Shown here one piece after another: positions 2 to 33,326 of a stretch of 39,215 nt of DNA (its first letter is position 1; every line of letters starts with the position of its first letter). The stretch lies in IMG/VR virus record IMGVR_UViG_3300025838_000072, positions 1 to 39,215 of that record, one strand, 5' to 3'. The position numbers were made by a program, and so were the translations under genes. The notes under the pieces are model-generated. The model had not been told where the DNA came from and did not search any database. It worked only from the letters and a program-made list of their open reading frames with translations. This stretch comes from a virus (taxonomy: Duplodnaviria; Caudoviricetes).

Positions 2-586
2 AACGGAAAGGGCATGTTGTGTTAATTGGACACGTTCAGCTAGTCCAAATGTACCACCATTTATGCGTCGACACAAGCTTTCTTCATTCCCAGCCTCGGC
101 TAATTGGTTACATCCGTGCGTAGCCCAAAACCATCCCCCACTCAATGCAGCATACATAGGGGTTTTTACTAGGTCTGGGTTTCTCACAAAATCCTGACCA
201 AGAGCTTGTCCACAGTGCCAGTAGTTATCGTGAAAGGTAAGTTGGATTGTGCCTCTTCCCCTGTACATGAACCCATCCCCACTTGCCTCATTCCTGTTCC
301 CCCCTCGATTGGCGTAAATTCTGTTGGCAATCTTCTGGGGATTGTGGGCAAAAAGGACGTACTCCTCTGGCTTGAAGTGAGTATGGAAGAGAGCTTGAAG
401 GGTTTCGGCTCTGTAGTTAAGATTCTCTTCCAGTGTTCGGAAGTGGTTGCACTCGTGTGAAAGCTGTCCGATAAAGGCGGCCTGCTCTTTGACGGTAAAA
501 ATGCTGAACTTTTGGATCGTTGCATTGAGTGGCTCTACCCATTCTGGCCCAATCTGTAGGGCATGAAGTTTTTCTGCTGTGATCAT
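2..586 (-). CDS. Endolysin, glycoside hydrolase family 19 (3' end runs off the window)
   Basis: Not in the ORF track because it has no stop in the window. Manual translation from ATG 586 (ATGA overlap with Rz): MITAEKLHALQIGPEWVEPLN...AAFIGQLSHEC..F..LEENLNY...IANRIYANRGGN..EASGDGFMYRGRGTIQLT..DNY...WFW...RRINGGTFGLAER. These are typical phage GH19 motifs. Confidence 0.93.
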   Translation of the reverse strand, partial: MITAEKLHALQIGPEWVEPLNATIQKFSIFTVKEQAAFIGQLSHECNHFRTLEENLNYRAETLQALFHTHFKPEEYVLFAHNPQKIANRIYANRGGNRNEASGDGFMYRGRGTIQLTFHDNYWHCGQALGQDFVRNPDLVKTPMYAALSGGWFWATHGCNQLAEAGNEESLCRRINGGTFGLAERVQLTQHALSV

Positions 587-1155
587 TTCACACCCTCATT
601 AACAGTCTGCATCACTTCGTTGTATTGACTGATACAGGCGTTGAGCTTGACGATTGCTTTGTCTCCGTCTGAGGCGATTGCGACAATATCTTTAATAGTC
701 TGTCGGTCAGATTCGGCTCCATTGGCTTGATTTCCATTGGTGGCATCTGCACTGGCTTGTACACCACAGGAGGAGGGGAGGCGCAACTCGCCAGAGTCAA
801 TGCGAGCATCAATACTAGCTTGCTTGGTCTTAATGTCATTTTTAGCCTGTTTCAGTTGACTGGTGGCTCTTGCGAGCTTTTGTCCGAGTTCGACTTCTTT
901 TGCACGAGCTTCTCCATTAAGGCGCTCAATTTCTGCTTTATCTTCTGCAACCCGTCTTTCATAGCCGTGATGATCTGAGACATAGTAACCTCCTGATATA
1001 ACCAACAACAAACCCACTGCCTTCATGATGAGAGCGTGGGGCTTTAACATAGGTAGGAATCCTACCAAGTAACTTAATACATAGGCCACTGCTCCTACTG
1101 CCAGAGCAATGACCGCTATCCAGTAAAACAAATCATCAAAGAACCAAGCAATCAT
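583..1155 (-). CDS. Rz: Rz-like inner-membrane spanin
   Basis: N-terminal TM helices followed by a coiled coil and a C-terminal ...LNACISQYN motif. Lies directly upstream of the endolysin and contains an embedded lipoprotein ORF. Confidence 0.8.
   Translation of the reverse strand: MIAWFFDDLFYWIAVIALAVGAVAYVLSYLVGFLPMLKPHALIMKAVGLLLVISGGYYVSDHHGYERRVAEDKAEIERLNGEARAKEVELGQKLARATSQLKQAKNDIKTKQASIDARIDSGELRLPSSCGVQASADATNGNQANGAESDRQTIKDIVAIASDGDKAIVKLNACISQYNEVMQTVNEGVK
612..839 (-). CDS. Rz1: Rz1-like outer-membrane lipoprotein spanin, embedded in Rz in another frame
   Basis: Signal peptide MTLRPSKLVLMLALTLASC ending in the lipobox LASC, followed by a Pro-rich segment. Entirely inside the Rz-like gene. 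Confidence 0.8.
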   Translation of the reverse strand: MTLRPSKLVLMLALTLASCASPPPVVYKPVQMPPMEIKPMEPNLTDRLLKILSQSPQTETKQSSSSTPVSVNTTK

Positions 1156-2666: not shown

Positions 2667-2669
2667 TTG

Positions 2670-3014: not shown

Positions 3015-3017
3015 AAA

Positions 3018-3164: not shown

Positions 3165-3181
3165 CTTTAACTTACTATAGT

Positions 3182-3409: not shown

Positions 3410-3468
3410 TTCATTTTCCTTTGATTTGACACCAAGATCAGGTGGTGACTTCCTGTTTTAATTTTTGT

Positions 3469-3870: not shown

Positions 3871-3882
3871 ATTTTTTCCTTT

Positions 3883-5421: not shown

Positions 5422-8411
5422 TAGAATGTTCCTCCTGAGATGCCAGATGTGGCAGTAAGTGATGTAAATTTACCAGTTGATGCTGTTGTTGCACCGATTG
5501 GTGTGCCATCAATTGATCCACCTGTGATTGCCACGCTACTAGCATTTTGCGTTGACATTGTACCTAATCCAGTGATTGCTGTACTAGGTATTGTGGTTGA
5601 CGCTGTCATCGTGCTTGTGCCATTACCGTACACATAGCCCGATAATGTGGTTGCACCAGTTCCGCCGTTAGCAACTGGTAATGCAGTACCTGAATAAGAA
5701 ACTGCCAAAGTCCCATTTGTTGTAATAGGTGAGCCAGTTACAGATAAAAATGATGGTACAGTCAAAGCCACACTAGTTACAGTACCGCCTGAAGCAGGTG
5801 TTGCGCTAATTGTGATTCCTCCTGCAGTATTACTAATTGATACATTAGTACCTGCAGTTAGTGTTGAGAGCGTATAACCTGTGCCATTACCAATAGCTAA
5901 TTGACCATTTGTGGGCGTTGCTGTTAATCCTGTACCACCATAAGCTACACCAATTGCTGTGGCATTCCATGTACCTGCTGCTAAAGTGCCTACACCGGTG
6001 ATACCTGTATATGAGCCACTTAAACGTGAAGTACCAAGCGTGCCTGAAGTAATATTCGATGCATTAGTTGTGTCAGTTGTAGCTGATGCTGCCAACCCAG
6101 ATACAGCACCTGCAGCAATTGCAATTGATGTGTTTGTAACTGAAGTAACACGACCATAAGTATCAACAGCCAAAACTGGAACTTGTGATGCAGAACCATA
6201 TGTGGCAGCCGTTACACCAGAAGTTGCTAAAGCAATTGTAACAGCAGATGCACCAGTATAGCTTGTACCTGTTAGTCCTGTCCCAATGGTTAAAGCATTA
6301 GGATTAGCTGCAGTAATTGTACCAGAAGCCCCTAGTGCAATAGATGTACCATTAACAGTAACTGAACTATTAGTTAAAAATGCATTACTAAATGTTCCTG
6401 AAGTAACTTGACTTGCCGCAATAGCAATTGATGTGTTACTTGCACTTGTAATTTGACCTTGAGCATTAATTGCTAAAGTAGGCACAGATGATGCTGTGCC
6501 ATATGTTGTAGCAGTTACACCTGTATTTGAAATGCTAAACTGTGTACCAGTAAGAGTTAATCCTGTACCTGCTGTATAAGCACCTGGGCCACCAATTTGT
6601 ACAAAAACTAAAGGCGTTGTACCAATAGTAATAGGTAAATCAGTACTTTGTACCCATTGTGTACTTGCATTAACAGTTCCACTAATGATAAAAGTTGTAT
6701 CACCAGGAGCTACTTCATTAGTTCCAGAACCTGACTGATCATAATCAGTTGCACGAGTCAACACCCAACCAACTGACCCTGATCCTACACTGGTAACAGT
6801 ATAAATACCATTGTATTGTCCAGAAGTTTCATTCTTAACTAAAATTCTTTGGCCGACATTTGGGTTCGCACCATCAATTGCTAAAGTAGCAAAAGGACTT
6901 GTTTTAGTAATTGTGGCACCAACACCAGACGTACCATTGTTATACGTAACAGTGCCTAAGTCGGCGGTTGTTGCATAATTACAAGCAGCATGATAGTTAA
7001 CGCCTGTTGCAATAGAATCAGCATAAGACTTATTAACAATATCATTTGCATTTACAGGTGTCGTGGAAATTGTTCCACTTGTCATAGCTACACTAGTAAA
7101 TGTACCTGCTCCAGGTGTTGAGCCACCAATTGTGACACCATTAACTGTTCCGCCTGTGATGGCAACTGAACTAGCACTCTGTGTTGACATTGTGCCAAGC
7201 CCAGAAACTTGTGTGTTAGCAATTGCAATAGGCGTATCGGCTAGTGCAGTTAACTGACCTTGTGCATTGACAGTTGCTGTTAAAGTCTTAGATGATGAGC
7301 CATAAGACCCTGCAGTAACTGCAGTATTTGCAAGACTAATTGTGACAGCCGCTGATCCGGTGTATGACCCTGAATTTAACCCTGTGCCAAATGTAAGAGC
7401 ATTTGGCGTTGCAGCCGTAATTGTTCCTGACCCACCTAGTGAAATAGTTGTGCCATTAACAGTAAGCGATGAATTGGTTAGTTGCGCATTTGTAATTGTG
7501 CCGCTTAATGCGGTTGTAGGAATCGTAGTACTGGCAGTCATTGCACTTGTACCATTTCCATACACATAGCCTGTTAAAGTACTTGCACCTGTACCTCCGT
7601 TTGCAGCATTTAATACACCTGATAAAACAATATTACCTGATGTTGCAGATGCTGGAGCAAATCCAGTAGTTCCTGCGCTAAATGTGCTTACACCACCTGC
7701 TTGAGTAAACTGTTTCCATACCCCATTAGCAAACCCATAATATGTGTTTGTGTCTGTGTTATATCTAATTTGACCATTAGTACCTACAGGCTGTTGAGCA
7801 GTAGTACCTACAGGGATTGTAATTGCCCCTGTTCCTGGGACAACAATGTTATTGTCAAGACCTATTGTAGGATTAGTAGATCCGTCACCCCCACTAACTA
7901 CAATTTGACCACTTGTACCGGCTATTTGTCTTAATCCTGCGCCACCACCACTTACAGCAACTAATCCTGAACCAGAAAGAGCCGCAATAGCAGCGGCTAT
8001 GCCATTTAATGAAAAAGTAGGGTTACCACCTGTACCATCAGCATTTGATACTGATAAACCATTTCCTGTGACTGCTAATTGTCTTGCTGCAACAGTGGTT
8101 GCACTATCTTTGACAATAATACCGCCTGATGCATTGTCTAAACTAAGTGCTGCGCCTGTTAGATTAATTCGATAATAAGAATCTGATCCACCGTCAGTAA
8201 AGTTTATCCCCGTCCCTGAAGATAAATATCTACTATTTGGAAGTGTCAACTCTTGATTGACAGTAAGAAATGTTTGTGTTTGAACAGGACTGTTTGCAAT
8301 AGCAGAAACTGTAGTTTGTACAGTTTGTCCGTTTTGAACAACCGGCACTAGTTCCGCACCTGTAATAGCACTTGGGGCTGTTGGTAATTGTGATATTCGA
8401 ATATTAGACAT
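5421..8411 (-). CDS. Long tail fibre protein with internal repeats
   Basis: 996 aa, G/S/T/A-rich. N-terminal RISQLP, GQIRYNT, RILVKNE..GQYNGIYTV...LTRATD, and repeated VNAQGQLT-type motifs. Confidence 0.8.
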   Translation of the reverse strand: MSNIRISQLPTAPSAITGAELVPVVQNGQTVQTTVSAIANSPVQTQTFLTVNQELTLPNSRYLSSGTGINFTDGGSDSYYRINLTGAALSLDNASGGIIVKDSATTVAARQLAVTGNGLSVSNADGTGGNPTFSLNGIAAAIAALSGSGLVAVSGGGAGLRQIAGTSGQIVVSGGDGSTNPTIGLDNNIVVPGTGAITIPVGTTAQQPVGTNGQIRYNTDTNTYYGFANGVWKQFTQAGGVSTFSAGTTGFAPASATSGNIVLSGVLNAANGGTGASTLTGYVYGNGTSAMTASTTIPTTALSGTITNAQLTNSSLTVNGTTISLGGSGTITAATPNALTFGTGLNSGSYTGSAAVTISLANTAVTAGSYGSSSKTLTATVNAQGQLTALADTPIAIANTQVSGLGTMSTQSASSVAITGGTVNGVTIGGSTPGAGTFTSVAMTSGTISTTPVNANDIVNKSYADSIATGVNYHAACNYATTADLGTVTYNNGTSGVGATITKTSPFATLAIDGANPNVGQRILVKNETSGQYNGIYTVTSVGSGSVGWVLTRATDYDQSGSGTNEVAPGDTTFIISGTVNASTQWVQSTDLPITIGTTPLVFVQIGGPGAYTAGTGLTLTGTQFSISNTGVTATTYGTASSVPTLAINAQGQITSASNTSIAIAASQVTSGTFSNAFLTNSSVTVNGTSIALGASGTITAANPNALTIGTGLTGTSYTGASAVTIALATSGVTAATYGSASQVPVLAVDTYGRVTSVTNTSIAIAAGAVSGLAASATTDTTNASNITSGTLGTSRLSGSYTGITGVGTLAAGTWNATAIGVAYGGTGLTATPTNGQLAIGNGTGYTLSTLTAGTNVSISNTAGGITISATPASGGTVTSVALTVPSFLSVTGSPITTNGTLAVSYSGTALPVANGGTGATTLSGYVYGNGTSTMTASTTIPSTAITGLGTMSTQNASSVAITGGSIDGTPIGATTASTGKFTSLTATSGISGGTF

Positions 8412-9839: not shown

Positions 9840-10391
9840 TTACCATCCTTTAATGTCATGTTTCTTAGTTTGACCACCTGTGGCACAATGCCATCTTTTT
9901 AGCGATGCTGCTTTACGAGTAGGACGACCTTTTTCATCTTTCATCGGTCCTTTCATTCCGCTCATTCTAGCACAAAAGCTATCATGTCTTGGTCCTTTTT
10001 CTTGTGGTGCTTTAAGATGACTTCCGGTTTCTCGATTGACTTTATCTCGACCTTTTTGAGTTAATCCTGCACCTCTATCTGTAGGAAGTTTTTCACCTCG
10101 TTTAACAGAAAGATGGACATCACCACCATGCTTTTTGCTTTGTGAATGCTTTAAGTCATAGTCTGTAGGAGCACCTTTGCTGCCAGGTTTACGCATATGT
10201 TCGCCTGACCCATGCTTGATTCGTTCTTGCTTAGCATGTATATTGTCCCATAAGCCACCAGATTTCTTTCCCACAGACCGCTTGGTAGCATATGCAATTG
10301 CAACGGCTTGCTTAACTGGTTTGCCGGCTTTAACTTCAGCGGACACATTCTTACTAAAAGCCTCTTTTGATTTACTTTTAATAAGTGGCAT
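9840..10391 (-). CDS. Highly basic modular protein (C-terminal module DUF6321-like)
   Basis: Lys/Arg-rich. Modules MPL.K...KQAVAIAY, GLWDNIHAKQERIK.GSGE.MRKPGSKGAP and GLTQKGR...R.DSFCARM...RW.C. Confidence 0.75.
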   Translation of the reverse strand: MPLIKSKSKEAFSKNVSAEVKAGKPVKQAVAIAYATKRSVGKKSGGLWDNIHAKQERIKHGSGEHMRKPGSKGAPTDYDLKHSQSKKHGGDVHLSVKRGEKLPTDRGAGLTQKGRDKVNRETGSHLKAPQEKGPRHDSFCARMSGMKGPMKDEKGRPTRKAASLKRWHCATGGQTKKHDIKGW

Positions 10392-11205: not shown

Positions 11206-12228
11206 TTAATAGTTACACTTACCGCCGGCTTTTTTATGAGTCGACATTTTTGAAGTATGGTGCTTAGCATGTCCACCATGCTTCATAGGATGGCCTTCCA
11301 TTTTTTCATGACCACCGTGTGCATGCTTTGCTGCATGCTTATGCATGTGCATATGACCTTCTTCATGATGACCATGAGTAGTGTGGTGTGCTGCATGACC
11401 ATGGTGTACTTTGCCGCCATGCTTGTATGCATCAATCTTTCTATTCACTTCACCAGTGCCAGACTTTTTGGTGGGCATTTTTTCGCCGTCATGCATGTCA
11501 TTCAAGTATTTGTCAGCAACACTTTGTGACACTGTTCCACCTTTAGCATAGTGATGTTTCTTAGTGTGGCCACCATGTTTGTAGCCTTTACCTTCAACAC
11601 CACTAGTCTTTGTCTGCTTAGCAAGACCTTGCTTGGCTTCATGCACTTTATCTTGTACATCAATCTTAGGTTTCAATGCATCACGTGCTTGAAACTTATC
11701 ACCTTTAGCAGCTAAACCGCCATCAGCATAATGATGTTTCTTAGAATGACCGCCATGCTTATAGCCAGGTGAACGTACACCACCTGTGCCTGCTGGTTTT
11801 GTAGGTCCTTTATCTTCTACACCACCAAGCAAACCACCGGGAACTGCACGTTGCATACCGCCTTTAGCCATGTGAGCTTTACCGCCATGCTTAAGACCGT
11901 GGTGAGCTTTACTAGCTTTCATGCCTTCATGATGCTTAAGTTCTTTTTCGATCTTGTGCATTTCATGCATTTCAGCTTTGTGCTCTTTACCGCCTTCAGC
12001 CATGTGATGTGCTTTACCACCGTGTTTACGCATTAACATTGCAGGAGGTCTAGCTGCCATCATTGGCGCACGTCTTGGCATTGCAGCAGCCATCATAGGC
12101 GCACCACCCATTGCCATATGCTTTTTGTGCTTGGCATGTCCACCACGTTTCATACCATCACCAACTTCATCAGCTGAAGGTTCAGTGGTCATTTCTTTAG
12201 GCTCGCGGCCAAATGAGGATTTTGACAT
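11206..12228 (-). CDS. His/Lys/Gly-rich low-complexity protein with repeated xKHGG / xAxGG motifs
   Basis: AGGAG RBS. 14 x-[KA]-x-GG motifs and a His-rich C-terminus. Confidence 0.8.
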   Translation of the reverse strand: MSKSSFGREPKEMTTEPSADEVGDGMKRGGHAKHKKHMAMGGAPMMAAAMPRRAPMMAARPPAMLMRKHGGKAHHMAEGGKEHKAEMHEMHKIEKELKHHEGMKASKAHHGLKHGGKAHMAKGGMQRAVPGGLLGGVEDKGPTKPAGTGGVRSPGYKHGGHSKKHHYADGGLAAKGDKFQARDALKPKIDVQDKVHEAKQGLAKQTKTSGVEGKGYKHGGHTKKHHYAKGGTVSQSVADKYLNDMHDGEKMPTKKSGTGEVNRKIDAYKHGGKVHHGHAAHHTTHGHHEEGHMHMHKHAAKHAHGGHEKMEGHPMKHGGHAKHHTSKMSTHKKAGGKCNY

Positions 12229-16413: not shown

Positions 16414-16836
16414 TTAGATAAATGCTTTAATGTCACGAGGGTCACCAGTGACTTTACCAATGAGTTCATGATCATTAAAGAAAGTAAACAGACATTTGCC
16501 ATTTAGTCCATTCGCATCTGTAAAATCAATTTCCCATCTATCACCACCCCACTTAGGCACACGAACATATTCACCCACTTGTGCCCATGAGCCCTCAGGC
16601 CATGACTCCATGGTGTCACGTTTCTTAAATGCCAAAGGACCAAGAGCAATTACTTTTCCGACTTGTGTATTCCACTTTTCGGTTTCTTTGGTCTCTTCAG
16701 GCAATACAATCCCAGAAGCAGTCACTTTGTCTTTCACAGCTCTAAGCTGTACAAGTACTCTGCCACCATAGGGTGCCATTAATGGATCTATACTTGGAAA
16801 CGCTTCTTCAAGCGTCTGTTCGATATCATTCGACAT
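16414..16836 (-). CDS. groES: GroES-like co-chaperonin
   Basis: P.GGRVLV...TASGIVLPE...GKVIALG...VGEYV...K.GG...NDHELIG matches the Cpn10 pattern. Confidence 0.85.
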   Translation of the reverse strand: MSNDIEQTLEEAFPSIDPLMAPYGGRVLVQLRAVKDKVTASGIVLPEETKETEKWNTQVGKVIALGPLAFKKRDTMESWPEGSWAQVGEYVRVPKWGGDRWEIDFTDANGLNGKCLFTFFNDHELIGKVTGDPRDIKAFI

Positions 16837-17011
16837 CTTGATTTTCCTCTTCTATGAGTTGGTTGATTAAATTCAAGGCTTCATCCAAGCCTTGGTGTTG
16901 ACCGACTAGGCGCTGGTAAGTCTCAAAATTGATGGCATACCCTTGTACAAGGGAGTCAGCAATCTCGACTTGCTTTTGCTTTATCCGTCCGATGAGATCA
17001 GAAATCCGCAT
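16826..17011 (-). CDS. Small helical hypothetical protein
   Basis: 61 aa with YQRLVG..QGL. Translationally coupled to both neighbours. Confidence 0.7.
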   Translation of the reverse strand: MRISDLIGRIKQKQVEIADSLVQGYAINFETYQRLVGQHQGLDEALNLINQLIEEENQDVE

Positions 17012-17301
17012 TAGCGGCCCCGACCAGATGACTTCTTCATAGGCGCAATAATGACTGCCATACCGCCTTTGGCATGACCACCTTTTTTCATTGTAGCAAT
17101 TTTACCTGTGGGCTTGCCAATGATTGGTGTTTTTGCCACTGCTGGCAGATTAGCCACTTTAGACTCAGGGATTGCACCCTTGTTTGCTATACCACCTTTG
17201 GCATAATGATGCTTTTTGGCAACACCGCCTTTTTTCAAATGGTTGGCTTCACCCTCGCCATGCATAGCGATACGTTTGTGCATGTTAATTGCTTCAGACA
17301 T
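17011..17301 (-). CDS. Small basic protein with KKGG/AKGG motifs
   Basis: LKKGG, YAKGG, MKKGG, HAKGG. Directly after the portal gene. Confidence 0.7.
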   Translation of the reverse strand: MSEAINMHKRIAMHGEGEANHLKKGGVAKKHHYAKGGIANKGAIPESKVANLPAVAKTPIIGKPTGKIATMKKGGHAKGGMAVIIAPMKKSSGRGR

Positions 17302-19822
17302 TTGGATTTCCCCCTAAGTTTGTTTGGAGTTGGTTTTGAGCATCGAGGACAGTTTGCAGTTGCTCATGTTGCAATTGTGCCGCATCTCTAGTTAGCTCTG
17401 CGGACTTAATTCTCTCGGCAGTTAGATTATTCTCTGTATTCATCACTACATCGGACTGTAATCTAGATTGCTTCTCTTGTGCAATGGTTTGCATGTCCTG
17501 AGCCTTCAACTGAATCTCAGCTTTATCACGAGCCGCTTTCCGTTGTGTTTCAGCCATAGAAGTTTGGACCAGAGCTTGTACAGATGGGTCAGTTGGTTGC
17601 TGTGATTGCTGCAATTGTTGCATCATCTTCACGAGTTGTGCAATCTGAGGCTGCAGTTGAGCAAATTGCTCTTCTGTGTCCTTATTAACATGCTGCGCAC
17701 TTACAGCCAACAACTGCTGAGCTTCTTTCATCATCGGTTGGACTTTTAATGCGTTAAAAGGTTCATGAAGGGCCACAGATGCATACGTGTCAATCTGATT
17801 TAAGTACCATAAGGTAATATGTTGTTTTATGTGCTCTAATGCTGCAGGGATGAATTTCGGGGCAATAATTGGGTTAGATCCAAGTACTGGGTTCATCGCA
17901 TAGGCCAAATGTGTTTGCAAATGTGCCATATGGTCCTGATGTGGGTATGCGCCGGCTGGTTTTCCTAGTGTCATGGACACATTTTCCAATGCAGGGTTCA
18001 TATCTTTCACTTCTTCAGGGTCAGGAAGCACTGCATTGACATCTGGGAGCTTAATTTGCTTCAGAATCCGCTTCTCTACTTCAAGTCGGTTGTAGAGATC
18101 GGGGTTTGCTTGTGCTCTTGCCGCAAGTGTTTGAATCTGTGCATACCTCTGACTCTCTGCGAAGATATGAGGGTCAGAAACCGGAACAATGTCCGTATTG
18201 GACTCAAAATCATCAACCGAAATGTCGAGATCTCTAACAATTTCACCTTTTCTTTGCTCATCGAGGTACCACCTGTTCAATCTAGCTAAGATCTTTAAGA
18301 CTCTCTTTTGACTGTCATGCAATCTGGCATGAATTGAGCTAAAAACTGCTGCACCTTGCTCAATCAATGCTTGAGCAGTGCCGACTGGCATGTTATTGCT
18401 AGCATCGGCAATCTTTTCTTCACTTGTAGTTACTACGCCCTTGGCTGCATCAGTTAGCCAGCCTAGAAGTTGGAACAGAACAGGTGAAGGTTGTGGGAAA
18501 GGTACTTGCATGGCAATCTTACGAATGTCATCTACTCCTGGAGCCCCCTCAATCTCGGCAACTTGTGTAGGTTCGATAACTGTAGTTTGCCCAGAGATCT
18601 TTCCGCCTTTAAGCTTTAACATTGTAGGAGCAGTTACAATGTGTGCTGAGTCTAGTAGCGCACGTAATGCTCCGGTAAGGGCTGCGGACAATCCGCCAAT
18701 GAGATGAGGGAGACCAATCGCATATGCTCCCCTCCAAGGTATAAACTTGAACTCAACCAGCCAATCCAAGTTAGACATTGTTTCATCGCCGTCCTCCCAG
18801 TTACGATACAAACCAACAACCGCACGCTCATTTTCATCGATCATTAGTATGTAAGGAGCTCTTTCACTCTTTGAGTAAGTATCATCCTCTAACTCTAACC
18901 AAGTACGAATGTGAAATACACGTCTAACACCATCAATGTTAATGCTTTGTGGCGTCTTACCTTCAATCTTATTAGTGGCTTTTTGTGCTTTAGTTTCATC
19001 AGGCTCTTGTGGCAATCTATAGATGTCTAAATCACGATATAAGCCTGTATTGACACGAATCTCATACATCTCTTGAGTAATGTCTTGGACTTCAGTGACT
19101 CGTGATGCTGTATAGAAATTACCTGCAGCAAATGGCAAATAAATGTTATCAATAGGTACAAACTCGGCACATGGGCGTTTCTTTTGTTCGTCCCACCATA
19201 GCTTGATGTATTGACTACCACCAAGAGGCAACTGTGTAAGCATTTGTTCTTGCTCATCACGATACTCTTCAATCTGCTCAGTCAACTGCCAGTTCATATA
19301 GTCACGTTTGCGCTCAGCCTTAGCTGTCTTGGCATCATCAACTTCACCGATAATCTTAGTTTTAACAGGACCATCTGGCGGAAAGAGTTCTTTAATTGCT
19401 CTTGCCGCAAAGTCCACACAAGCCTCAGCCATAACAGGGTGCACAACTTTAGATGCACCCATGAACTGTGCACCACCTGGGGCATCATGCCCTAGTCCAG
19501 TACGGCGAATACCATCTTCATATTGCTTATCACGATCTTCACGAGCTTCTTTATCTTTCTCAATTAGATCTAAGTACTTTAGAGCAATAGAATTAAGCTC
19601 TGAAATATCAAGCGATTCGGCAAGATTTTCGTAAAAGTCAGGCGACTCTTCAGGGCCTTTAAGGTCATCCATTCGCACAATGGCAGATCCGTCAGGCAAT
19701 TCCTCAACATCAGGAATCTCCTCAATGATCTCCATAATGGATTCATCTTCATTAATCGAAGGCTCTTGCTCAGGCCCGATAAATCGATTGAAGTCTTGAG
19801 GGATAGGCATTTCTGTAGCCAT
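17294..19822 (-). CDS. Portal protein (podovirus-type, long C-terminal helical region)
   Basis: 842 aa. GAS.V.HP..AEA.V.F.ARA..EL.P..GPVK and PVGT..AL.E.G..V.S.IH.RLH motifs, Gln-rich C-terminus, downstream of terL. Confidence 0.85.
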   Translation of the reverse strand: MATEMPIPQDFNRFIGPEQEPSINEDESIMEIIEEIPDVEELPDGSAIVRMDDLKGPEESPDFYENLAESLDISELNSIALKYLDLIEKDKEAREDRDKQYEDGIRRTGLGHDAPGGAQFMGASKVVHPVMAEACVDFAARAIKELFPPDGPVKTKIIGEVDDAKTAKAERKRDYMNWQLTEQIEEYRDEQEQMLTQLPLGGSQYIKLWWDEQKKRPCAEFVPIDNIYLPFAAGNFYTASRVTEVQDITQEMYEIRVNTGLYRDLDIYRLPQEPDETKAQKATNKIEGKTPQSINIDGVRRVFHIRTWLELEDDTYSKSERAPYILMIDENERAVVGLYRNWEDGDETMSNLDWLVEFKFIPWRGAYAIGLPHLIGGLSAALTGALRALLDSAHIVTAPTMLKLKGGKISGQTTVIEPTQVAEIEGAPGVDDIRKIAMQVPFPQPSPVLFQLLGWLTDAAKGVVTTSEEKIADASNNMPVGTAQALIEQGAAVFSSIHARLHDSQKRVLKILARLNRWYLDEQRKGEIVRDLDISVDDFESNTDIVPVSDPHIFAESQRYAQIQTLAARAQANPDLYNRLEVEKRILKQIKLPDVNAVLPDPEEVKDMNPALENVSMTLGKPAGAYPHQDHMAHLQTHLAYAMNPVLGSNPIIAPKFIPAALEHIKQHITLWYLNQIDTYASVALHEPFNALKVQPMMKEAQQLLAVSAQHVNKDTEEQFAQLQPQIAQLVKMMQQLQQSQQPTDPSVQALVQTSMAETQRKAARDKAEIQLKAQDMQTIAQEKQSRLQSDVVMNTENNLTAERIKSAELTRDAAQLQHEQLQTVLDAQNQLQTNLGGNPNV

Positions 19823-19840: not shown

Positions 19841-22800
19841 TTAATCAGGTTCATTATATGGATCATACCCATGATCACGAATATAATTTGCTAAGCGTCG
19901 TCTTTCATCATTAGTAAGACGGTTTAACCTTCTACTTATTGTGTTGCGCTCGACCATATCTGCAAGTTCTTCATCAGTGTACTCATTAGGGTCAAACTCA
20001 TCATTCTCCATTGCATGACCAATTGCATCGTTTAACATATGATGAAGATCTTGCAATGATCTACCTTGTTCTGGTTGTGGTATAGCACCTATGACTTCAC
20101 CTAAGTCATCTATTGCTCGACGTAATAGTTGTAAGTAGTCATCATAAGCACTTCGACTAACCCTTAATGCTCCAGGCGTTGTCGCTGCAACTTCATTTCT
20201 TCTAGTGTTGAGTTGATCTAGTGCAGACTGAGCTATTTCATCTACACTATAACCACCTCCAAACATGTTGTTTACCATGTCAGTAACTTGATCAATAGTT
20301 GACTGCATTAGTCTATGGCCATCAGGTGTAGAGGCAAGTTGCAAAGGCTCTGTATACGCATTTACGACATCTCGATTTTGCTGATTTTGCCCAAACGCTG
20401 CAGGTGTTGGAGTTCCGCTTATTCTATTCAAATGACTATGTAAGTCTTCTAAATCTGAAATAGCTCTTTCTTGTTCTTCTAGGTCAAATCCCATATCCCC
20501 AGGAATTACTTGAATATCAGTGATTAGTCCTGCAATATGGTCTTGCAATGATTCAATTATTTCTGGAATAGGGGTTCCTGCCGTAATGCCATCATCTAAC
20601 ATCTGATTGTACATTTGTGACATATCATCCCAACGCTCAAGTGTGTCATTGATCACTTGACGGATTTCTCGATGTTCTTGTGTAGCTTGTGGCAATTGCT
20701 GATTAGCGCCATGCATGTTATCAGGCTCAAAGTTAAATTCATCTTCAGGCACAGGAAGTCTGTGTTGTAATTCACGAGCTAGCAACTCCCGTTGACGCAT
20801 CGAAAAATCTTGATAAAGCTCATTACCAGGCACTTCATCCCCATTACGAAGTGAATGTATGATGTCAGCAACTTCATTATGGTCAAAGCGACCAAAAATA
20901 TTATTAGCTGTCTGATCAACTTCATCAGCCTGTCTATGACCCATTGCATCGCGTAAATGTGGAGTAGTTTGGACTTGCAATCTTTGCATGGTCTGTTGTA
21001 GTGCTGTAGGCTCACGATAAGGCTCTACAGCTTGATCCTCATTGCCTGTATGCAAGAACATAATGTTGTTTGCAAGATCATATAGAGCTGCTCTTACAGT
21101 CTGAGATTCTTGAATTGAAGCTGCATCTCTAACCAGCGTGGCAGTTCGAACAGGGTTTGCAAACGTATCATGCTGTGTTGCCGCTTGCATAAGCACATTT
21201 CTAATAATATCAGCGCCTAAATTGCCTTCGGGTGTGCCAAGATTTTCAAGCCTCGAAATACTACTATTAACACGATCGCCAAGTTGACGATAGAAAGCTT
21301 CACGCGGTGTTTCATTAGCTGGTTCATTTCCAGCTTCAGGCGCATGCTCTTCATTCATATGAGTTGCTGTATTAACAGCATCTAAATGCGCTTCAAGCAT
21401 TTCACGCAATTGTGTTAAACGTTCAGGGTGTTGTGCTGCTCGTAACTCCCATCTAATGTTTTGACCTGCATCTGGGTCATCTAGCATACGTAACATAACA
21501 CCAAGATGCTCAGCCATGTTAGGAAGATCTTCATTCGCCATTTCTTGAATAGTGTCTTGATAAGCGCTTCGTACACGAGCAGAATCAGCCATTGCTCTAA
21601 TAGCAGGAATAGGCTGCATTGCTCTTTCGAGAACTAGGTTGTTTGATAATTCAACAAACCGACGATGTACTTGCTCTTCAGCTTGTTCACGAAGCCCAGG
21701 AGGCAATTGACGAAATGTGGGGTGATCATATTGCCCATTAGCCAACAGAAACCTAGTTGTTTGCAATCCTTGAATATTATGGTCTTGATCTGTACGCTCA
21801 ACGTTAATTAGCTCACGAGCTAATTGATCAACTTGCTCAGGCGTAAATGAAGGCGGTTGAGCTGGTGGTGCATTAAGATGATGAATATGTTCGCTAAAAG
21901 CATCGCCATGTCGACCAAGCATATCAGCAACTTCACTAAGCTCATCATTTGTTCGAACGCCCATTTCTTGAGGATCCATATATTCAGGATTCATATGACT
22001 ACTTGCGCCTAGCAAATTAGTCTCAAGATCTTCGCTGTCAAGACCCTCTTGGCTTAAGTCTTGTAAAAAAGTTATATATGCTTGTCTGACTCGATTATTA
22101 GATGCACTTGCCAAAATATCTGGAATAGGCTCAGTTGGACCGTTAAGACGAATAGCTTGAGCATTAGGGCTTAAGCCTGTTAAGTCTTGCGCCGCTGCCG
22201 TATCAATCATACGATTGATTCTTAAGTCTATATCATGTAGTTGATGATATAAATCAGCATGATGTGTGGCATAATCAGGATCATCTCTATCAAGCTCGAC
22301 TATTTGCTGACTTAAGCTTTGCTGTTGTGCTCGTAAGTAGTTAATAGAATCTGCTTGTCTTGCATTTGTAGGTGCAGGTATTTCTTTATTCTTTAGCGCA
22401 ATTAAGTCTGAATCTAGCACAAAGCGTGGAAGTGGGTGAGCTGCAACTGCTCTTTGGAAGTCTTCCGTCTTCATACCGGCTCTAATTGCTAATGATCTTA
22501 CTGGCGTTCTTGCTGTGTCATAAACACCAGACTTACTATCATCGCCTAAAGACCGAATCTCATTTGAGTGCGCATTTAAAACATCTCTAAAAGCGGCTCT
22601 ATACTTTGGATCGATTTGCGCATTTCGATATTGTGTAGCAAAACCAACAATATATGTAGGACCACCTGGTGAGTCTGATTTATTTTTAAGCTCAATGTTT
22701 CCAACAGGCCAACCAGTCTCGGCATCCCTCATTATCAATTGCTTAGAATGCCCATCAATCACATCCCGAATATAAGATGTCATAGGTGCATTTTGTGTTG

Positions 22801-24913
22801 TTGGAAACCGCTTACCTGTGGCTACATCAAGAATCGGTGTGTAACGTCGTGTATCGCCTGTCCACAAATGCTTATAGTTGCAGCTATCAAGCCCTTTAGC
22901 CGCACAAAAATCATTGATCTCAGTTTCCATTGACAAATGATGAAGCACATCGTCAGGGTTTGTGCTTTGATCAAGAGTAAGAAGCTTGACATTGCCAAAC
23001 CGCTGAGAATCAGGGATTGCATTTAAGTCTTTCTTAAGACGATCTTCGACGGCTATCTTACGCCCTATTGATGCTTTCTTTTCAGCCAGTTCTTGAGCAA
23101 TTCGATCTTTTGTTTGATCAACCACAAACTTATCAATTGGGGTTCTTGCAAGCTCATTTGCACTCATCTTACCCGTTAAGATGTTATCAAACAAGCCTTT
23201 ACCAACTGCTGACAACCCAAGTGAATATAAGCTAGTCGGATTTATGTCATAAACAGGTGCATTCGGTGTATTGTCAACTATATTCTTAAGCTGTGGATAA
23301 AACTGCTTTTCATAAACAGGAATTTCATCCCACATCTTTTGTGCTGTTTTCATTGTCAAACTAGAATCAGCAATGTTCTCATAATCATGAGCAAGCTTTA
23401 AGTTGTCAATGTCGCCATGTTTTGATTGTATTTGTGACTCAAGCTTTTTGATTTGCTTAAGTAAATCTTTTTTCCCAGGAAGCGAAATAGCAGTAACGCC
23501 TTGCTCTTGTGCTTGACGATCCAATGCCGTACTTTGAGTTTGTAGATCATCTAGCTGTTTATGCAAATCTCTAAGTTCAGTTTGTTTAGCATCTAGCTTA
23601 GGCTGAACTGTGCCGAACGGCATATCAGGATTAAATGCTCGTCTGCTTTTTTCTATACTACCATTTGGAACAGTAGAGTTGACAATATTATCACGAGTCA
23701 GCATTGTAATGCCTTTGCCTGCTTGAGTAAGCAAAGGATCTTTTTCAGTTCCTACATACTTCATGATGTAGTTCTTAAATGGGCCTTGCAATGCTTTTAC
23801 AGCAGTATCGTAATTGTCTTTAAACTGATCAAGTGTTGGCAAACCATTCTTAGTGGCATATTCATTTAAATGCTCAGCTCGTTTTTGCTCACTCTCGTCA
23901 TGCGGATACTTTAAGTCAAATGCATGACGAGCATCGAATTGGCTTAAACCAGGAAACTCTTGCTGTATTTTTTGATTTCTAAAATCGATAAATTGACTAT
24001 CATGCGGAGTATCTTCAAGTATCTTACTTTGATACAAATCATTAAGCTCATAAGTTGTAGGTGTTGAGCTATAAGGCATGATATCGCGAATAACGCTATC
24101 AATACCGCCTTTCCCTAACGGAACTTTATTTGTAGTTGCCGAAACGACGGGTGATCCCTCAGGTCTTACAGCATACAAACTTGTCGTAGGTTGCAAAGCA
24201 CCAGGAACACCTGGAACAGGCGGTAAGCCTTGCATCTTGCGCTTAGTCATAATATCGCCAATTGTGTCCGCAGTCTTTTGTGCCTTAACACCTAATGTAT
24301 CTTCGCCAAGTATGTTTTGTCTTTTAACGCCTGATTGTGCATTCCTAAAGTCTTGTGGTAAGTCTTTAAGCTCTTGACCGACAATTTGCGCTTTACCGAT
24401 TGTGGCTCTTACGTCACTTGGCGATACAAGTGGTCTACGTTCTTCAAGCCCAGTTATATTGCCAATTACGCCGCCTCTTGGGCTCATAGGCATCATAGGA
24501 ACGTCTTCCAGCATTGTGCCAAGATTACTTTCAAACTGTTGGCCAAGTGGGGTTTGTGGCGGCTTAGCATGCATTTTGCTAAAATCCGTCGCCAATTGAG
24601 TTGCTGTATCGAGTCCTGTTGTGCTTACTTTGCCTGTGTTAACATAGTTGCCAATGTCACTAGCAATCTCAGGAGCTGATCTAACAAGCCCTTGAGCAGC
24701 GCCTAATGCGCCAATTGCCGGATTTACAACAGTCGTTCTTGCTAAGTCTTGCATGGACTTAACAAGCATTAGTGGATTGTAGTTTGCGGCTACATTTTTA
24801 ATTGTGCTTATAGCTGAATCTAATGGTGAAGCCGCTGGTTGTGGAGTCGATAATCCGCCAGCCAAAGGTGGCACTGATTGAGTACTATTGTCATCCCATT
24901 CATTAAGCGGCAT
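19841..24913 (-). CDS. Large (1690 aa) multidomain protein, candidate internal virion/ejected protein, with PcfJ-like central domain and Lys-free C-terminal half
   Basis: Long intact ORF between terL and portal. The function is inferred from position and composition only. Confidence 0.6.
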   Translation of the reverse strand: MPLNEWDDNSTQSVPPLAGGLSTPQPAASPLDSAISTIKNVAANYNPLMLVKSMQDLARTTVVNPAIGALGAAQGLVRSAPEIASDIGNYVNTGKVSTTGLDTATQLATDFSKMHAKPPQTPLGQQFESNLGTMLEDVPMMPMSPRGGVIGNITGLEERRPLVSPSDVRATIGKAQIVGQELKDLPQDFRNAQSGVKRQNILGEDTLGVKAQKTADTIGDIMTKRKMQGLPPVPGVPGALQPTTSLYAVRPEGSPVVSATTNKVPLGKGGIDSVIRDIMPYSSTPTTYELNDLYQSKILEDTPHDSQFIDFRNQKIQQEFPGLSQFDARHAFDLKYPHDESEQKRAEHLNEYATKNGLPTLDQFKDNYDTAVKALQGPFKNYIMKYVGTEKDPLLTQAGKGITMLTRDNIVNSTVPNGSIEKSRRAFNPDMPFGTVQPKLDAKQTELRDLHKQLDDLQTQSTALDRQAQEQGVTAISLPGKKDLLKQIKKLESQIQSKHGDIDNLKLAHDYENIADSSLTMKTAQKMWDEIPVYEKQFYPQLKNIVDNTPNAPVYDINPTSLYSLGLSAVGKGLFDNILTGKMSANELARTPIDKFVVDQTKDRIAQELAEKKASIGRKIAVEDRLKKDLNAIPDSQRFGNVKLLTLDQSTNPDDVLHHLSMETEINDFCAAKGLDSCNYKHLWTGDTRRYTPILDVATGKRFPTTQNAPMTSYIRDVIDGHSKQLIMRDAETGWPVGNIELKNKSDSPGGPTYIVGFATQYRNAQIDPKYRAAFRDVLNAHSNEIRSLGDDSKSGVYDTARTPVRSLAIRAGMKTEDFQRAVAAHPLPRFVLDSDLIALKNKEIPAPTNARQADSINYLRAQQQSLSQQIVELDRDDPDYATHHADLYHQLHDIDLRINRMIDTAAAQDLTGLSPNAQAIRLNGPTEPIPDILASASNNRVRQAYITFLQDLSQEGLDSEDLETNLLGASSHMNPEYMDPQEMGVRTNDELSEVADMLGRHGDAFSEHIHHLNAPPAQPPSFTPEQVDQLARELINVERTDQDHNIQGLQTTRFLLANGQYDHPTFRQLPPGLREQAEEQVHRRFVELSNNLVLERAMQPIPAIRAMADSARVRSAYQDTIQEMANEDLPNMAEHLGVMLRMLDDPDAGQNIRWELRAAQHPERLTQLREMLEAHLDAVNTATHMNEEHAPEAGNEPANETPREAFYRQLGDRVNSSISRLENLGTPEGNLGADIIRNVLMQAATQHDTFANPVRTATLVRDAASIQESQTVRAALYDLANNIMFLHTGNEDQAVEPYREPTALQQTMQRLQVQTTPHLRDAMGHRQADEVDQTANNIFGRFDHNEVADIIHSLRNGDEVPGNELYQDFSMRQRELLARELQHRLPVPEDEFNFEPDNMHGANQQLPQATQEHREIRQVINDTLERWDDMSQMYNQMLDDGITAGTPIPEIIESLQDHIAGLITDIQVIPGDMGFDLEEQERAISDLEDLHSHLNRISGTPTPAAFGQNQQNRDVVNAYTEPLQLASTPDGHRLMQSTIDQVTDMVNNMFGGGYSVDEIAQSALDQLNTRRNEVAATTPGALRVSRSAYDDYLQLLRRAIDDLGEVIGAIPQPEQGRSLQDLHHMLNDAIGHAMENDEFDPNEYTDEELADMVERNTISRRLNRLTNDERRRLANYIRDHGYDPYNEPD

Positions 24914-26336
24914 ATGGGTTCACCCTTCTAGGCTTGGTATCATCCACATAAAGATCTGGGTCATTATACAAATAATCCAAGACAAGGAAACCACTGTCTC
25001 GCAAATATCGTAAAGCTTGGCTGGTTGAGTCTACAAGGTCGTCATGTCGGACTTCAGGGAAAGCACAAAGCTGATTGATCAACGGTTCGGCCCAGTCACG
25101 AGCCATGCCTTCACGCGACATAGACTCAGGAATATACACCAAGCCTTTTTGAATCAGAGGCGCCACGATATTCAGTCGCTGTGTTTTGTCTGCATTCCCT
25201 GGGTTATAAGCACGGACTGGCAATCCGGCTCTTTGTAGGTCTTGAATCAGTGAAATACCTGCTGACTTGTCCTCAATCAGAACTAAGTCAACCTTCTTGC
25301 CTTGTCCGAATTCGTCATTGTCACCGTAAATCGTACCGAACTCTTCAAGCACACGAGGCCGAAGGTCTGGGTATTTCATGTGCTCGTCCCATGCATCGAT
25401 TAGCATAACAGACATCGGCTTGTCGGTTGGTTTAAAGATCCCCCAAACTGTGCAAGCAGTCGGGTCATTGGCTGTCTTATCAGATGTAGCACAGTCGTAG
25501 CTTTGTATGACGTACTGAAACTGAGGCAACGGCTTTTCGGCCGGCCAAAGTCTTAGCCATTGACGTTTAACGATGCCTGATTCTTCTGGGTCGATAATCT
25601 CAGCATGAATCTCTTGTCGGCCAAGCGTTGTGCCTTCATACTGTAAGATCTGCTGTTGGAACGATGGAGCTAAGTTCTTTAAGTTGTCATACGTTGATGC
25701 TGTTGTGTAGCATACGTCTTCACCGTCACGATTTGCTAAGTCAACAATCAAAGGCTTTGGCTTTGGTGTTGTTGTACAGATGAGACGAGGCTGCTTACCG
25801 AGACGCATGCCGAATTGCAGCATGTTCCATGATTCGTCAAGGTAATGCCAAGCTGCAAGCTCATCAAGCCACCCGCCATGAAACTGCGGACCGCGAAAGC
25901 GCTCAGGCTCTGATGCAGGAATGCCTTTGATGATTGAGCCGTTCTTTAAGTTAATCTCATGCAGAGATTTATAGTAAAAGTCGATAAGCTCAGTCGGCAT
26001 AACGTTTAGCAGCCCTGAATCGCCCTCAAAGCACACATCACGAACGTCACCGCTCGTTGGAGCCGAAACTAGCCATCTTGTCTTTGGTTGTGTCCAAGCT
26101 GCCCACCAAGTCCACTCAGCCGCGCACCGAGTTTTGCCAGCACCACGACCTGCTAAAAGTAACCAGATACTCCACCAATCGCCCTTAGGCGGTATTTGAT
26201 GATCACTAGCTATAGCAAGCCATTTGTTTCGTGCTTTCAGCGCTGCTTTCCATTCCGGGGACGCTGTACTTAGATTAGGTCCGGTTTTTAGACGTTGATC
26301 AACGTGCTTAGCTATTTTCTCGATTGTCGTTGTCAT
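24903..26336 (-). CDS. terL: Terminase large subunit
   Basis: Walker A AGRGAGKT, Walker B WLDE, TTTP motif, nuclease domain with SYD...IEDKSAG...HDDLVDS. Confidence 0.95.
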   Translation of the reverse strand: MTTTIEKIAKHVDQRLKTGPNLSTASPEWKAALKARNKWLAIASDHQIPPKGDWWSIWLLLAGRGAGKTRCAAEWTWWAAWTQPKTRWLVSAPTSGDVRDVCFEGDSGLLNVMPTELIDFYYKSLHEINLKNGSIIKGIPASEPERFRGPQFHGGWLDELAAWHYLDESWNMLQFGMRLGKQPRLICTTTPKPKPLIVDLANRDGEDVCYTTASTYDNLKNLAPSFQQQILQYEGTTLGRQEIHAEIIDPEESGIVKRQWLRLWPAEKPLPQFQYVIQSYDCATSDKTANDPTACTVWGIFKPTDKPMSVMLIDAWDEHMKYPDLRPRVLEEFGTIYGDNDEFGQGKKVDLVLIEDKSAGISLIQDLQRAGLPVRAYNPGNADKTQRLNIVAPLIQKGLVYIPESMSREGMARDWAEPLINQLCAFPEVRHDDLVDSTSQALRYLRDSGFLVLDYLYNDPDLYVDDTKPRRVNPYAA

Positions 26337-31755: not shown

Positions 31756-31934
31756 AATGTCCAAAATGTGGTACATGGTCTATTGTGCTAAGTACAAGAT
31801 CCACACAAAAGAACACATGTACACGAAGACGTGAATGTGCCAACATGCACCGATTTACAACAACTGAACTTCTTAAACTCGATTTGAAAGAAAACTATGT
31901 ACCAAAAAGTCAAACAATTCCGCCAAAAGCTTAA
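31752..31934 (+). CDS. NrdR N-terminal-like zinc ribbon protein
   Basis: MKCPKCG...V..TR......RRREC...HRFTT.E. Confidence 0.75.
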   Translation: MKCPKCGTWSIVLSTRSTQKNTCTRRRECANMHRFTTTELLKLDLKENYVPKSQTIPPKA

Positions 31935-32277
31935 CCTTCCTGTTTCAGATAGACCGCAATTGCTAAGATCGGCTGAAATCAGCTTTTATGCACGGTTCAT
32001 CATGGAGGAACTAAGCGAACTAATGCGAGCACATGAAAAGAACAACTTGGTGGATGCAGCTGATGCAATCACTGATCTAATCTATGTGGCCATGGGTTGT
32101 GCCCATCATATGGGTATGCCATTGGAAGACATCTTTGATATTGTACACAATGCCAATATGCAAAAGAAACCTGGGCAAACTAACCGAGGCGTGCAAACAG
32201 ATGCACTAAAACCTGAAGGTTGGGTACCACCTGAAAGAGAAATTGAACAAGTACTTGATGCACTAAAAATAATTTAA
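31897..32277 (+). CDS. MazG-like / PRA-PH nucleotide pyrophosphohydrolase
   Basis: EELSE...DAITDLIYVAMG...VHNANM.K...KPEGW.PP. Confidence 0.85.
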   Translation: MYQKVKQFRQKLNLPVSDRPQLLRSAEISFYARFIMEELSELMRAHEKNNLVDAADAITDLIYVAMGCAHHMGMPLEDIFDIVHNANMQKKPGQTNRGVQTDALKPEGWVPPEREIEQVLDALKII

Positions 32278-32377
32278 AAATATTTTAAAAATAGTGTTTA
32301 CTTTTCAAAAAGTACAGTATAATCCAATTGTTTACTTCGGTAAATAACTAAACTTCTTAACTTCTAAAAGGCTTAAT
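32271..32377 (+). promoter_or_regulatory. Rightward sigma70-type promoter, paralogue of the 30196-30310 element
   Basis: AAAATATTTTAAAAA, GTTTAC (32296-32301), 16 nt, TATAAT (32318-32323), leader TTCTTAACTTCT, AAAAGG RBS. Confidence 0.7.
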
Positions 32378-32878
32378 ATGAACATCTTTTTTCTACATCA
32401 TGTACCACAAATTGCGGCTTTGTATCATTGTGACAAGCATGTGGTAAAAATGGCAGTTGAAACGGCACAACTGTTAGCAACAGCACATCATCACTATGGC
32501 AATGGCGATAATGTGACATACAAACCAACACACAAAAATCATCCATCAGCAATATGGGCACGTGAATCAAGATTGCACTATGATTATTTAGTGGATCTTG
32601 GTATTGCCTTATGCAAAGAATATCGTCGTAGATATGACAACACTCATGCTTGCCACCAATTGTTTGTTGGTGAGTTAATGTATTGCCCTCCTGAAATGAA
32701 CAAACTGCCTTTGCTATGGCAAGACCCACCACAATGCATGCCTGATGAGTGCAAACGTGATAGTTCACTTGAAGGTTATCGTGAGTATTACCGCCATAAG
32801 CATACTATCATGGACATGGTTTGGTATAAAAATGATGGCTCATATACACCACCTTTTATGGAGTTAGAACATGCTTAA
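32378..32878 (+). CDS. Pyrimidine-dimer DNA glycosylase-like protein
   Basis: MNIF.L......A..HCDKHVVKM..E.AQLL, YK.TH.NHP..IW.R, EY..RY...H and PQCMP...YR.YY motifs. Confidence 0.75.
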   Translation: MNIFFLHHVPQIAALYHCDKHVVKMAVETAQLLATAHHHYGNGDNVTYKPTHKNHPSAIWARESRLHYDYLVDLGIALCKEYRRRYDNTHACHQLFVGELMYCPPEMNKLPLLWQDPPQCMPDECKRDSSLEGYREYYRHKHTIMDMVWYKNDGSYTPPFMELEHA

Positions 32879-33326
32879 TCAACAAAAATGGGATTTAAGA
32901 TACTTAACTCTTGCTAAACTAGTTGCATCTTGGTCTAAAGACCCATCCACTAAGTGTGGTGCTGTTATTGTTAATCCTAATAATGAGATTGTTAGCATTG
33001 GCTTTAATGGCTTTCCAAAAAGTGTAATTGATTCAGAAGAACGGCTTAACAATAGGCAAACCAAACTACAAATGATGGTGCATGCCGAGAGAAATGCACT
33101 TATCTTTGCAAAACAAGACTTGCACAAATGCACAATTTATACGTATCCTATGATGGCATGTAGTGAATGTGCAGCTATGATCATACAGGCAGGCATCAGC
33201 AGGCATGTGTCAATGATCACAACAAATAAAAACTGGAAAGAAAGCTTTGTATTGGCTAGTCAAATGTTTGATGAAGCCGGTGTTAATGTTGACATGTACT
33301 TACAAAATGAATTGGAGAATGTATGA
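32871..33326 (+). CDS. dCMP deaminase
   Basis: WSKDPST..GAVIV, GFNGFP, HAERNA and C..CA..IIQAGI motifs. Confidence 0.9.
   Translation: MLNQQKWDLRYLTLAKLVASWSKDPSTKCGAVIVNPNNEIVSIGFNGFPKSVIDSEERLNNRQTKLQMMVHAERNALIFAKQDLHKCTIYTYPMMACSECAAMIIQAGISRHVSMITTNKNWKESFVLASQMFDEAGVNVDMYLQNELENV

Follow-up and report, generated by a model that had tools for sequence, protein, structure and literature searches.

The DNA examined here, called the window, comprises positions 1 to 39,215 of the IMG/VR virus record IMGVR_UViG_3300025838_000072, a phage genome fragment (67% complete) that occurs in freshwater and lake metagenomes, with no RNA data set listed among those that contain it. Its minus strand carries a gene for a protein of 1690 amino acids (aa), in which a conserved N-terminal region and a PcfJ-like domain are followed by a long arm that forms a lysine desert (Table 1). 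All 61 lysines of the protein lie in aa 1-843, the final one being K843 (codon AAA, 22385-22387), and the 847 residues of aa 844-1690 contain none, a distribution reported in the initial annotation and confirmed by our recount. At 847 of 1690 aa, the arm falls within both published definitions of a lysine desert, a Lys-free run of at least 150 aa or of at least 50% of the protein (PMC13696103).

Table 1. Features of the window and of related loci; positions are those of the window unless a locus is named.
Feature	Position	Strand	Remarks
Gene for the 1690-aa protein	19841..24913	-	between terminase large subunit and portal genes
Conserved N-terminal region, aa 1-599	23117..24913	-	mostly helical, normal Lys; from alignments
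Coiled-coil hairpin, aa ~437-517	23363-23605	-	predicted structure
PcfJ-like domain, aa ~640-843	22385..22996	-	predicted GNAT-like strand/helix order; ~40-aa insertion after Cys motif
D668-F669-C670 motif	22904..22912	-	Cys invariant; Phe replaces His in window copy
Lysine desert, aa 844-1690	19844..22384	-	helical modules strung together by Pro/Gln/Ala-rich linkers
Module m1, aa 935-1012	21878..22111	-	22 hits in 18 proteins, 5 Lys/1,722 aa
Module m2, aa 1021-1090	21644..21853	-	four-helix unit; 50 hits in 44 proteins, 1 Lys/3,488 aa
Module m3, aa 1105-1185	21359..21601	-	
Module m4, aa 1200-1290	21044..21316	-	two closest proteins only
Module m5, aa 1315-1390	20744..20971	-	63 hits in 56 proteins, 6 Lys/4,753 aa
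Module m6, aa 1415-1500	20414..20671	-	two closest proteins only
Module m7, aa 1515-1610	20084..20371	-	22 hits in 15 proteins, 3 Lys/2,146 aa
Module m8, aa 1618-1690	19844..20062	-	end of protein; 42 hits in 35 proteins, 0 Lys/2,866 aa
Terminase large subunit	24903..26336	-	upstream neighbour; Pfam Terminase_6N and 6C
Portal protein	17294..19822	-	downstream neighbour; phrog_1216, E 3.4e-13
Lys-rich 340-aa protein	11206..12228	-	13 hydrophobic-x-x-GG motifs, the motif type that ends most deserts; putative link
Rz-like i-spanin	583..1155	-	phrog_2466, E 4.8e-11
Nested lipoprotein-like open reading frame	612-839	-	read by eye as o-spanin
Probable virion protein with Lys-free runs	L013:4502-6205, L014:4973-6538, L017:4988-6415		

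The proposal that came with the initial annotation, that the desert reflects selection against Lys rather than base composition, was borne out. The G+C content (GC) is 0.37-0.44 in both halves of the gene (about 0.41) in a genome of 0.42, and AAA and AAG are plentiful out of frame in the desert DNA (67 and 37 in the two other frames). These counts rule out a DNA-level shortage of A, and we rejected DNA composition as the cause. The desert retains 66 Arg (7.8%, versus 4.5% in aa 1-843) and 34 His, 17% of its residues are Asp or Glu, and 287 of its 847 codons are a single substitution away from a Lys codon. The chance of a Lys-free stretch of this length is 2e-28 at the rate of the N-terminal half and 3e-14 at that of the whole protein, with an exact, scan-corrected bound of about 1e-17. 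A sequencing or assembly artefact was likewise rejected, since a contig from a separate run covers the entire gene and differs by 122 substitutions without any gap. In contigs of other runs, module-sized segments are missing in frame at two places (net 222 and 294 nt) and an out-of-frame joint occurs close to the C-terminus, all weak calls based on 30-letter sides at 85% likeness.

The absence of Cys from the desert, to which special meaning had also been attached, proved to be no signal. The only Cys residues of the window protein are C670 and C678, and Cys is nearly absent outside the enzyme domain throughout: across the family, the sequence that precedes the domain has 1 in 119,202 residues, and canonical PcfJ proteins have 1 in 27,950 outside the motif. 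All ten of the neighbouring ~1,120-aa proteins found at related loci also lack Cys, yet they contain 6.3-8.1% Lys.

Homologues were collected in three ways: a search of proteins with aa 200-900 as query gave 27 hits, viral contigs contributed 5 and 61 loci, and a domain-only profile run against 1.84 billion representative proteins gave 178 hits, the best 150 of which were examined. The protein and viral-contig searches gave 70 distinct proteins. In 65 of them the domain is complete and followed by at least 200 aa, and every one of these 65 has a Lys-free run of 177-1017 aa behind the domain. For the domain-profile matches, we scored a fixed interval 25-225 aa behind the domain, which was possible in 99 of the 150. 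At most two lysines were found there in 77 of 82 matches above 100 bits (in total 61 Lys against 1,374 Arg), in 1 of 11 at 60-100 bits, and in 2 of 6 below 60 bits. When all homologues were pooled, 185 of 190 showed this low Lys count; 90 of the pooled proteins had been picked up by way of a desert module, which biases the pool towards deserts. With the pool dereplicated to below 60% domain identity, the count was 61 of 65. The initial annotation had suggested examining whether divergent homologues have a desert that begins behind the same domain, and they do.

Across the family, Lys makes up 5.8% of the N-terminal region, 6.4% of the domain, 0.3% of the arm and 7.8% of the sequence from the first GG motif onward. 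Substitutions between relatives follow the same boundary. In comparisons with two relatives, none of the 63 and none of the 357 amino-acid changes in the desert involve Lys, whereas 9 of 82 and 54 of 380 do so in the N-terminal half (Fisher p 0.005 and 4e-17). The lysine desert is real, selected and family-wide; it is conserved across a deep clade, in a large family of uncultured freshwater phages. In one member the gene is split into two open reading frames parted after about 200 aa (L057:1542-2141 and 2232-7085).

What the desert tracks is a variant of the domain. In a FastTree phylogeny of 207 domains (midpoint-rooted and with long-branch warnings), 122 of the 124 desert rows fall on one branch of 132 rows with support 99. 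The desert clade and its sister group have in common the insertion after the Cys, the median distance to the next strand being 58 and 53 residues, respectively, compared with 19 for canonical PcfJ. Among sister proteins with long extensions, 12 of 14 have a Lys-free run of at least 100 aa, versus 1 of 13 canonical PcfJ proteins, none of which (0/13) reaches 150 aa. The desert goes with the variant that has the insertion and helical modules, so the PcfJ domain alone does not require it. As a control, we used 201 other open reading frames of at least 300 aa from the same loci, some of them spurious. Lys-free runs of at least 200 aa were found in 12 of these, all low-charge sequences rich in Ser, Thr, Gly, Ala, Gln or Asn (Asp plus Glu 5-8%), in contrast to the arms of the family (Asp plus Glu 16-17%, Arg 8.7%). 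Ten of the 12 represent a single probable virion protein with 3.7-5.7% Arg.

AlphaFold, given a 27-row alignment, modelled aa 150-843 at a mean predicted local distance difference test score (pLDDT) of 82.9 as a helical body and a coiled-coil hairpin followed by the domain, whose elements run strand-helix-(insertion)-helix-three strands-helix. Against viral models, Foldseek matched the N-terminal region and domain together to PcfJ-like proteins (E 3.6e-12, 8.9e-8 and 5.9e-5), and Pfam PcfJ (PF14284) was detected in 5 of 46 scanned distant profile matches, overlapping the matched stretch in 4. These structural matches and bridging sequences agree with the initial annotation, which had placed a PcfJ-like domain beside the desert. 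The invariant Cys, and the GG tail of phage members, are further features shared with PcfJ proteins, which are found in phages and conjugative plasmids. The desert family differs in having D-x-C where PcfJ has G-H-C, in the ~40-aa insertion and in the long, modular Lys-free arm, and Pfam gave no PcfJ hit for the window protein, the 27 members of alignment A1 or the 27 members of alignment A2. The desert family is a sister clade of PcfJ; neither its Pfam score nor its motif places it inside PcfJ.

The position of Cys670 is Cys in all 207 aligned domains, and the residue before it is His in 100 of 124 desert-bearing rows and in 36 of 36 canonical PcfJ rows. Against the PDB, Foldseek returned recurrent GNAT matches led by GCN5 histone acetyltransferases (prob up to 0.99, TMt up to 0.48, weak E values of 0.059 or above). 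With GCN5 acetyltransferases as the best GNAT matches and an invariant Cys, the domain beside the desert looks Lys-directed, and we regard it as a putative Lys-directed acyltransferase with a predicted GNAT-like fold. PDB sequence searches with the domain gave nothing significant, structure searches found no specific fold match for the conserved N-terminal region, and Pfam, PHROGs, NCBIfam and PADLOC supplied no family name beyond coiled-coil noise. The leads from the ESM Atlas for the domain, at 0.88-0.89, were a viral cluster and DUF2686; there were none for the desert.

The arm itself is a mosaic of at least eight helical modules of 70-95 residues each, defined with seeds from P0001, a protein 99.8% identical to the window desert. 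The modules recur in differing order in other members and are nearly Lys-free there as well (Table 1). Two pairs are paralogues, m1 with m3 (hhalign 99.9%) and m5 with m8 (96.6%). AlphaFold predicted a four-helix fold for m2 (pLDDT 88.3), for which no specific structural match was found. PDB sequence searches with the modules gave nothing significant, the sole row with E < 0.001 being a repeat protein labelled E8, over 15-17 residues. Among 98 carriers of m2, 86 have the enzyme domain and 12 begin inside the arm and look like fragments. Two proteins, P0212 (400 aa, on a 54-kb contig) and P0251 (620 aa, on a 31-kb contig), consist of a Lys-free arm and a tail with no enzyme domain, and could be either split genes or stand-alone arms.

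In 131 proteins where the end of the desert was mapped, it coincides with a GG motif in 84 and with the C-terminus in 16, including the window copy, and lies elsewhere in 31; as the GG motif often contains Lys itself, an edge at this motif arises in part by construction. Of the 131, 104 close with a Lys-rich GG tail that carries a short conserved motif at the C-terminus; the window copy has no such tail. The tail may act as a packaging signal that is cleaved off during maturation. Desert-type and canonical PcfJ proteins have in common this Lys-rich tail, introduced by GG and closing with a short, conserved, helix-like end (for example L028:9926-15514 and L048:3895-11166), and the shared tail is a candidate capsid-targeting signal. 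The swappable domains DUF6973, InPase and PF18760 are located between GG motifs. Three Lys-rich (15-17%) window proteins on the minus strand, at 11206-12228, 17011-17301 and 9840-10391, carry 13, 4 and 2 hydrophobic-x-x-GG motifs, and the 96-aa one among them is conserved behind the portal gene in many relatives. These are possibly cleavable core or scaffolding proteins. The initial annotation had suggested that the desert protein and the Lys-rich GG proteins might form one system; we found no functional link between them.

The position of the gene points to the virion. Among 45 distinct locus homologues, 35 adjoin the terminase gene, the portal gene or both, and the other 10 lie 7 bp behind the ~1,120-aa gene at the end of a structural operon, a pairing whose position suggests an ejection-protein cluster. 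A large multidomain protein of variable domain content, encoded in a virion operon, resembles injected polyvalent phage proteins, and the 1690-aa protein is likely a virion-packaged cargo, a putative role read from gene order. The Rz-like spanin implies a host with an outer membrane, probably Gram-negative, and by capsid the window's nearest cultured relatives are phages of Caulobacter (77%). In one of these, Caulobacter phage RW, just a tRNA gene lies between the terminase gene and the next large gene. No cultured phage in our INPHARED copy matched the 1690-aa protein, and no relative was found among the genome contigs searched for a host. Several relatives have a variable gene of ~300-380 aa between the terminase and PcfJ-like genes (for example L008:8393-9451 and L010:8778-9923), which the window does not.

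Because Lys is normal in the N-terminal region, domain and tail and in the ~1,120-aa neighbours, its loss is local rather than protein- or virion-wide. The reading we favour, to which we give somewhat less than an even chance, is that the protein is an injected Cys acyltransferase whose tethered target-binding arm is Lys-free to escape self-acylation. In this model, the protein would be packaged in the virion, lose its Lys-rich GG tail during maturation, and be ejected into the host. The invariant Cys would form an acyl-enzyme that passes its group on to Lys amines, and the donor would probably not be acetyl-CoA. The variable, flexible arm would grip host targets and sweep past the active site, so that arm lysines were lost and the enzyme could not acylate its own arm, whereas lysines fixed in the rigid N-terminal body would be out of reach of the active site and hence harmless.

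Several observations weigh against this model. The GNAT match is weak, both VIA structure searches returned the coiled coil only, and 24 of 124 desert rows have another residue in place of the His beside the Cys and yet keep the desert. In GNATs, the glycine-rich loop of motif A binds the pyrophosphate of coenzyme A (CoA). No such loop is apparent by eye in alignment A2, where the helix after strand 4 begins I-D-P-x-Y, and with the CoA loop seemingly absent, the donor may be something other than acetyl-CoA. Charged tRNA, for example, is used by some GNATs (PMC13219725). The desert is essentially confined to one clade, and its link with the insertion amounts to one or two evolutionary events. 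The domains appended to canonical PcfJ are Lys-rich (273 Lys in 3,494 aa), Lys returns before any GG motif in 31 of 131 proteins, at a further Lys-containing domain in some and almost immediately in a few, and the 98 m2 carriers included no enzyme-free protein usable as a control. The probable virion protein found among the controls (470-570 aa, rich in Gln, Gly, Ala and Ser), which is encoded in the second gene context, also has Lys-free runs, of 250-392 aa, and several window structural proteins have low K/(K+R); together these hint at a wider avoidance of Lys and speak against a cause that is purely local.

A biophysical cause would apply if the arm has to unfold on its way through the tail or host envelope, or has to avoid or seek certain charge contacts, and Arg suits this better than Lys. 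Other probable virion proteins are indeed Lys-poor while keeping some Arg, including in Caulobacter phage RW (GC 64%), where no desert gene was seen. We nevertheless consider this explanation unlikely, since the Lys-free controls are all low-charge, unlike the arm, and since a soft preference would hardly yield 0.3% Lys with a sharp edge when the Lys-rich N-terminal half belongs to the same chain. A Lys-preferring protease, whether a phage maturation enzyme that cuts K-GG tails or a host enzyme, could instead clip the extended arm, with Lys purged from the flexible part only. Deserts that end at a GG motif usually have Lys directly before the GG, and Lys-rich proteins with as many as 13 of these motifs are encoded elsewhere in the window. 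Many GG motifs, however, have no Lys, so that the specificity seems to lie in the GG, the folded helices are as Lys-free as the linkers, and Pfam and PHROGs scans identified no protease in the window, all of which makes a protease decidedly unlikely as the cause.

The initial annotation had raised host defence and pupylation as further settings. The arm could be a bait, sponge or inhibitor of a host Lys-conjugating defence, either an E1-E2-ubiquitin-like protein (Ubl) system of the Bil or CBASS type or a Lys acyltransferase, and be Lys-free to avoid being tagged, the phage's own enzyme posing no threat in this case. Bacterial E1/E2 systems are described as attaching Ubl to lysines of their targets (bioRxiv 2023.09.26.559546). 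The hypervariability and shuffling of the arm, with 63 non-synonymous versus 44 synonymous codon changes relative to the homologue at L003, fit a host-facing surface. The m2 profile weakly resembles two stretches of REV1 (E 0.84), which we take to be ubiquitin-binding motifs (UBMs), and for one member of m2 there is a match to a ubiquilin-like domain (E 0.026). Pfam UBM (PF14377) matched 0 of 5 records at E <= 10, and no UBM row appeared among 17 members. A UBM-like pattern written post hoc from the REV1 match occurs 22 times versus 1.1 in shuffles, which recounts the module itself, and neither Pfam nor structure supported reading m2 as a UBM. Lys-conjugating defences are patchily distributed among hosts, although the desert is near-universal in its clade, and with normal Lys in the N-terminal half and the large neighbours only an arm-local mechanism would fit. 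We hold the defence explanation to be the main rival of the self-acylation model, though clearly the less likely of the two. A search for a phage-encoded Ubl system, which covered Prok-JAB but not E1 or E2, gave hits in 0 of 5 related records. Escape from pupylation by an actinobacterial host is highly improbable. Lysine deserts are reportedly enriched in Actinobacteria and Mycobacterium phages (PMC13696103), but the spanin implies an outer membrane, the nearest cultured capsid relatives infect Caulobacter, and only half of a single protein is affected.

We also considered a variant of the enzymatic model, a long shot in our estimation, in which the PcfJ-like domain would be a CoA-independent Cys transpeptidase that cuts the GG-ending tails and Lys-rich GG-repeat proteins of the phage and joins the resulting pieces to lysines of host proteins held by the shuffled arm. 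If true, this would represent virion-delivered, ubiquitin-like tagging by a single enzyme with no need for E1 or E2, and a San1-style lysine desert that arose independently in phage.

The self-acylation model has a parallel in the yeast E3 ligases San1, Slx5 and Hrd1. As set out in the same review (PMC13696103), experiments have shown that these keep Lys near the catalytic module and have none in long appended, flexible substrate-binding regions, and Arg is retained, as in the phage family. The phage arm differs in being composed of folded helical modules rather than disordered regions and in its GNAT-like Cys domain in place of a RING, and the phage genome is AT-leaning. A predicted GNAT fold in a large multidomain protein of a late operon is another feature with precedent, since GNATs are described in injected polyvalent phage proteins (PMC5512222) and among phage host-takeover factors (PMC7824862, PMC7552054), including phiKMV Rac (PMC7552054). 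Those domains are described as RimI-like, whereas the domain studied here has an invariant Cys and seemingly no CoA loop. Relatives in the desert family add further C-terminal domains, such as InPase in P0109. The word "PcfJ" is absent from the main text of PMC5512222, and its passages on these proteins contain no desert; its supplementary domain lists lie outside this comparison and might name the domain.

The deserts of Actinobacteria and Mycobacterium phages (PMC10665810, discussed in PMC13696103) fall within the same definitions as the present ones. The present family differs in being free of the GC confound, in its probable Gram-negative host, and in having one region with sharp, conserved edges. 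Literature searches on phage lysine deserts and on PcfJ brought up nothing that describes such a family, and it appears to be undescribed as far as literature and database searches reach. A 2026 review names as an open question whether phage lysine deserts are selected or a by-product of GC (PMC13696103). With ~190 proteins from AT-leaning or mid-GC genomes, and a bounded region flanked by normal Lys, the family offers a natural test of desert selection. Lys-directed chemistry would also be the first functional hint we have found for the widespread, uncharacterised PcfJ-like domain.

The window has other features apart from the desert protein. A GroES co-chaperonin gene (16414-16836, minus strand) lies inside the head module and is kept in relatives and in Caulobacter phage RW. 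Near the lysis genes, two overlapping open reading frames (2489-2875 and 2670-3014, minus strand) encode short tandem peptide repeats. On the plus strand, a nucleotide-metabolism cluster (31897-33326) comprises PRA-PH/MazG-like, pyrimidine-dimer glycosylase-like and dCMP deaminase genes.

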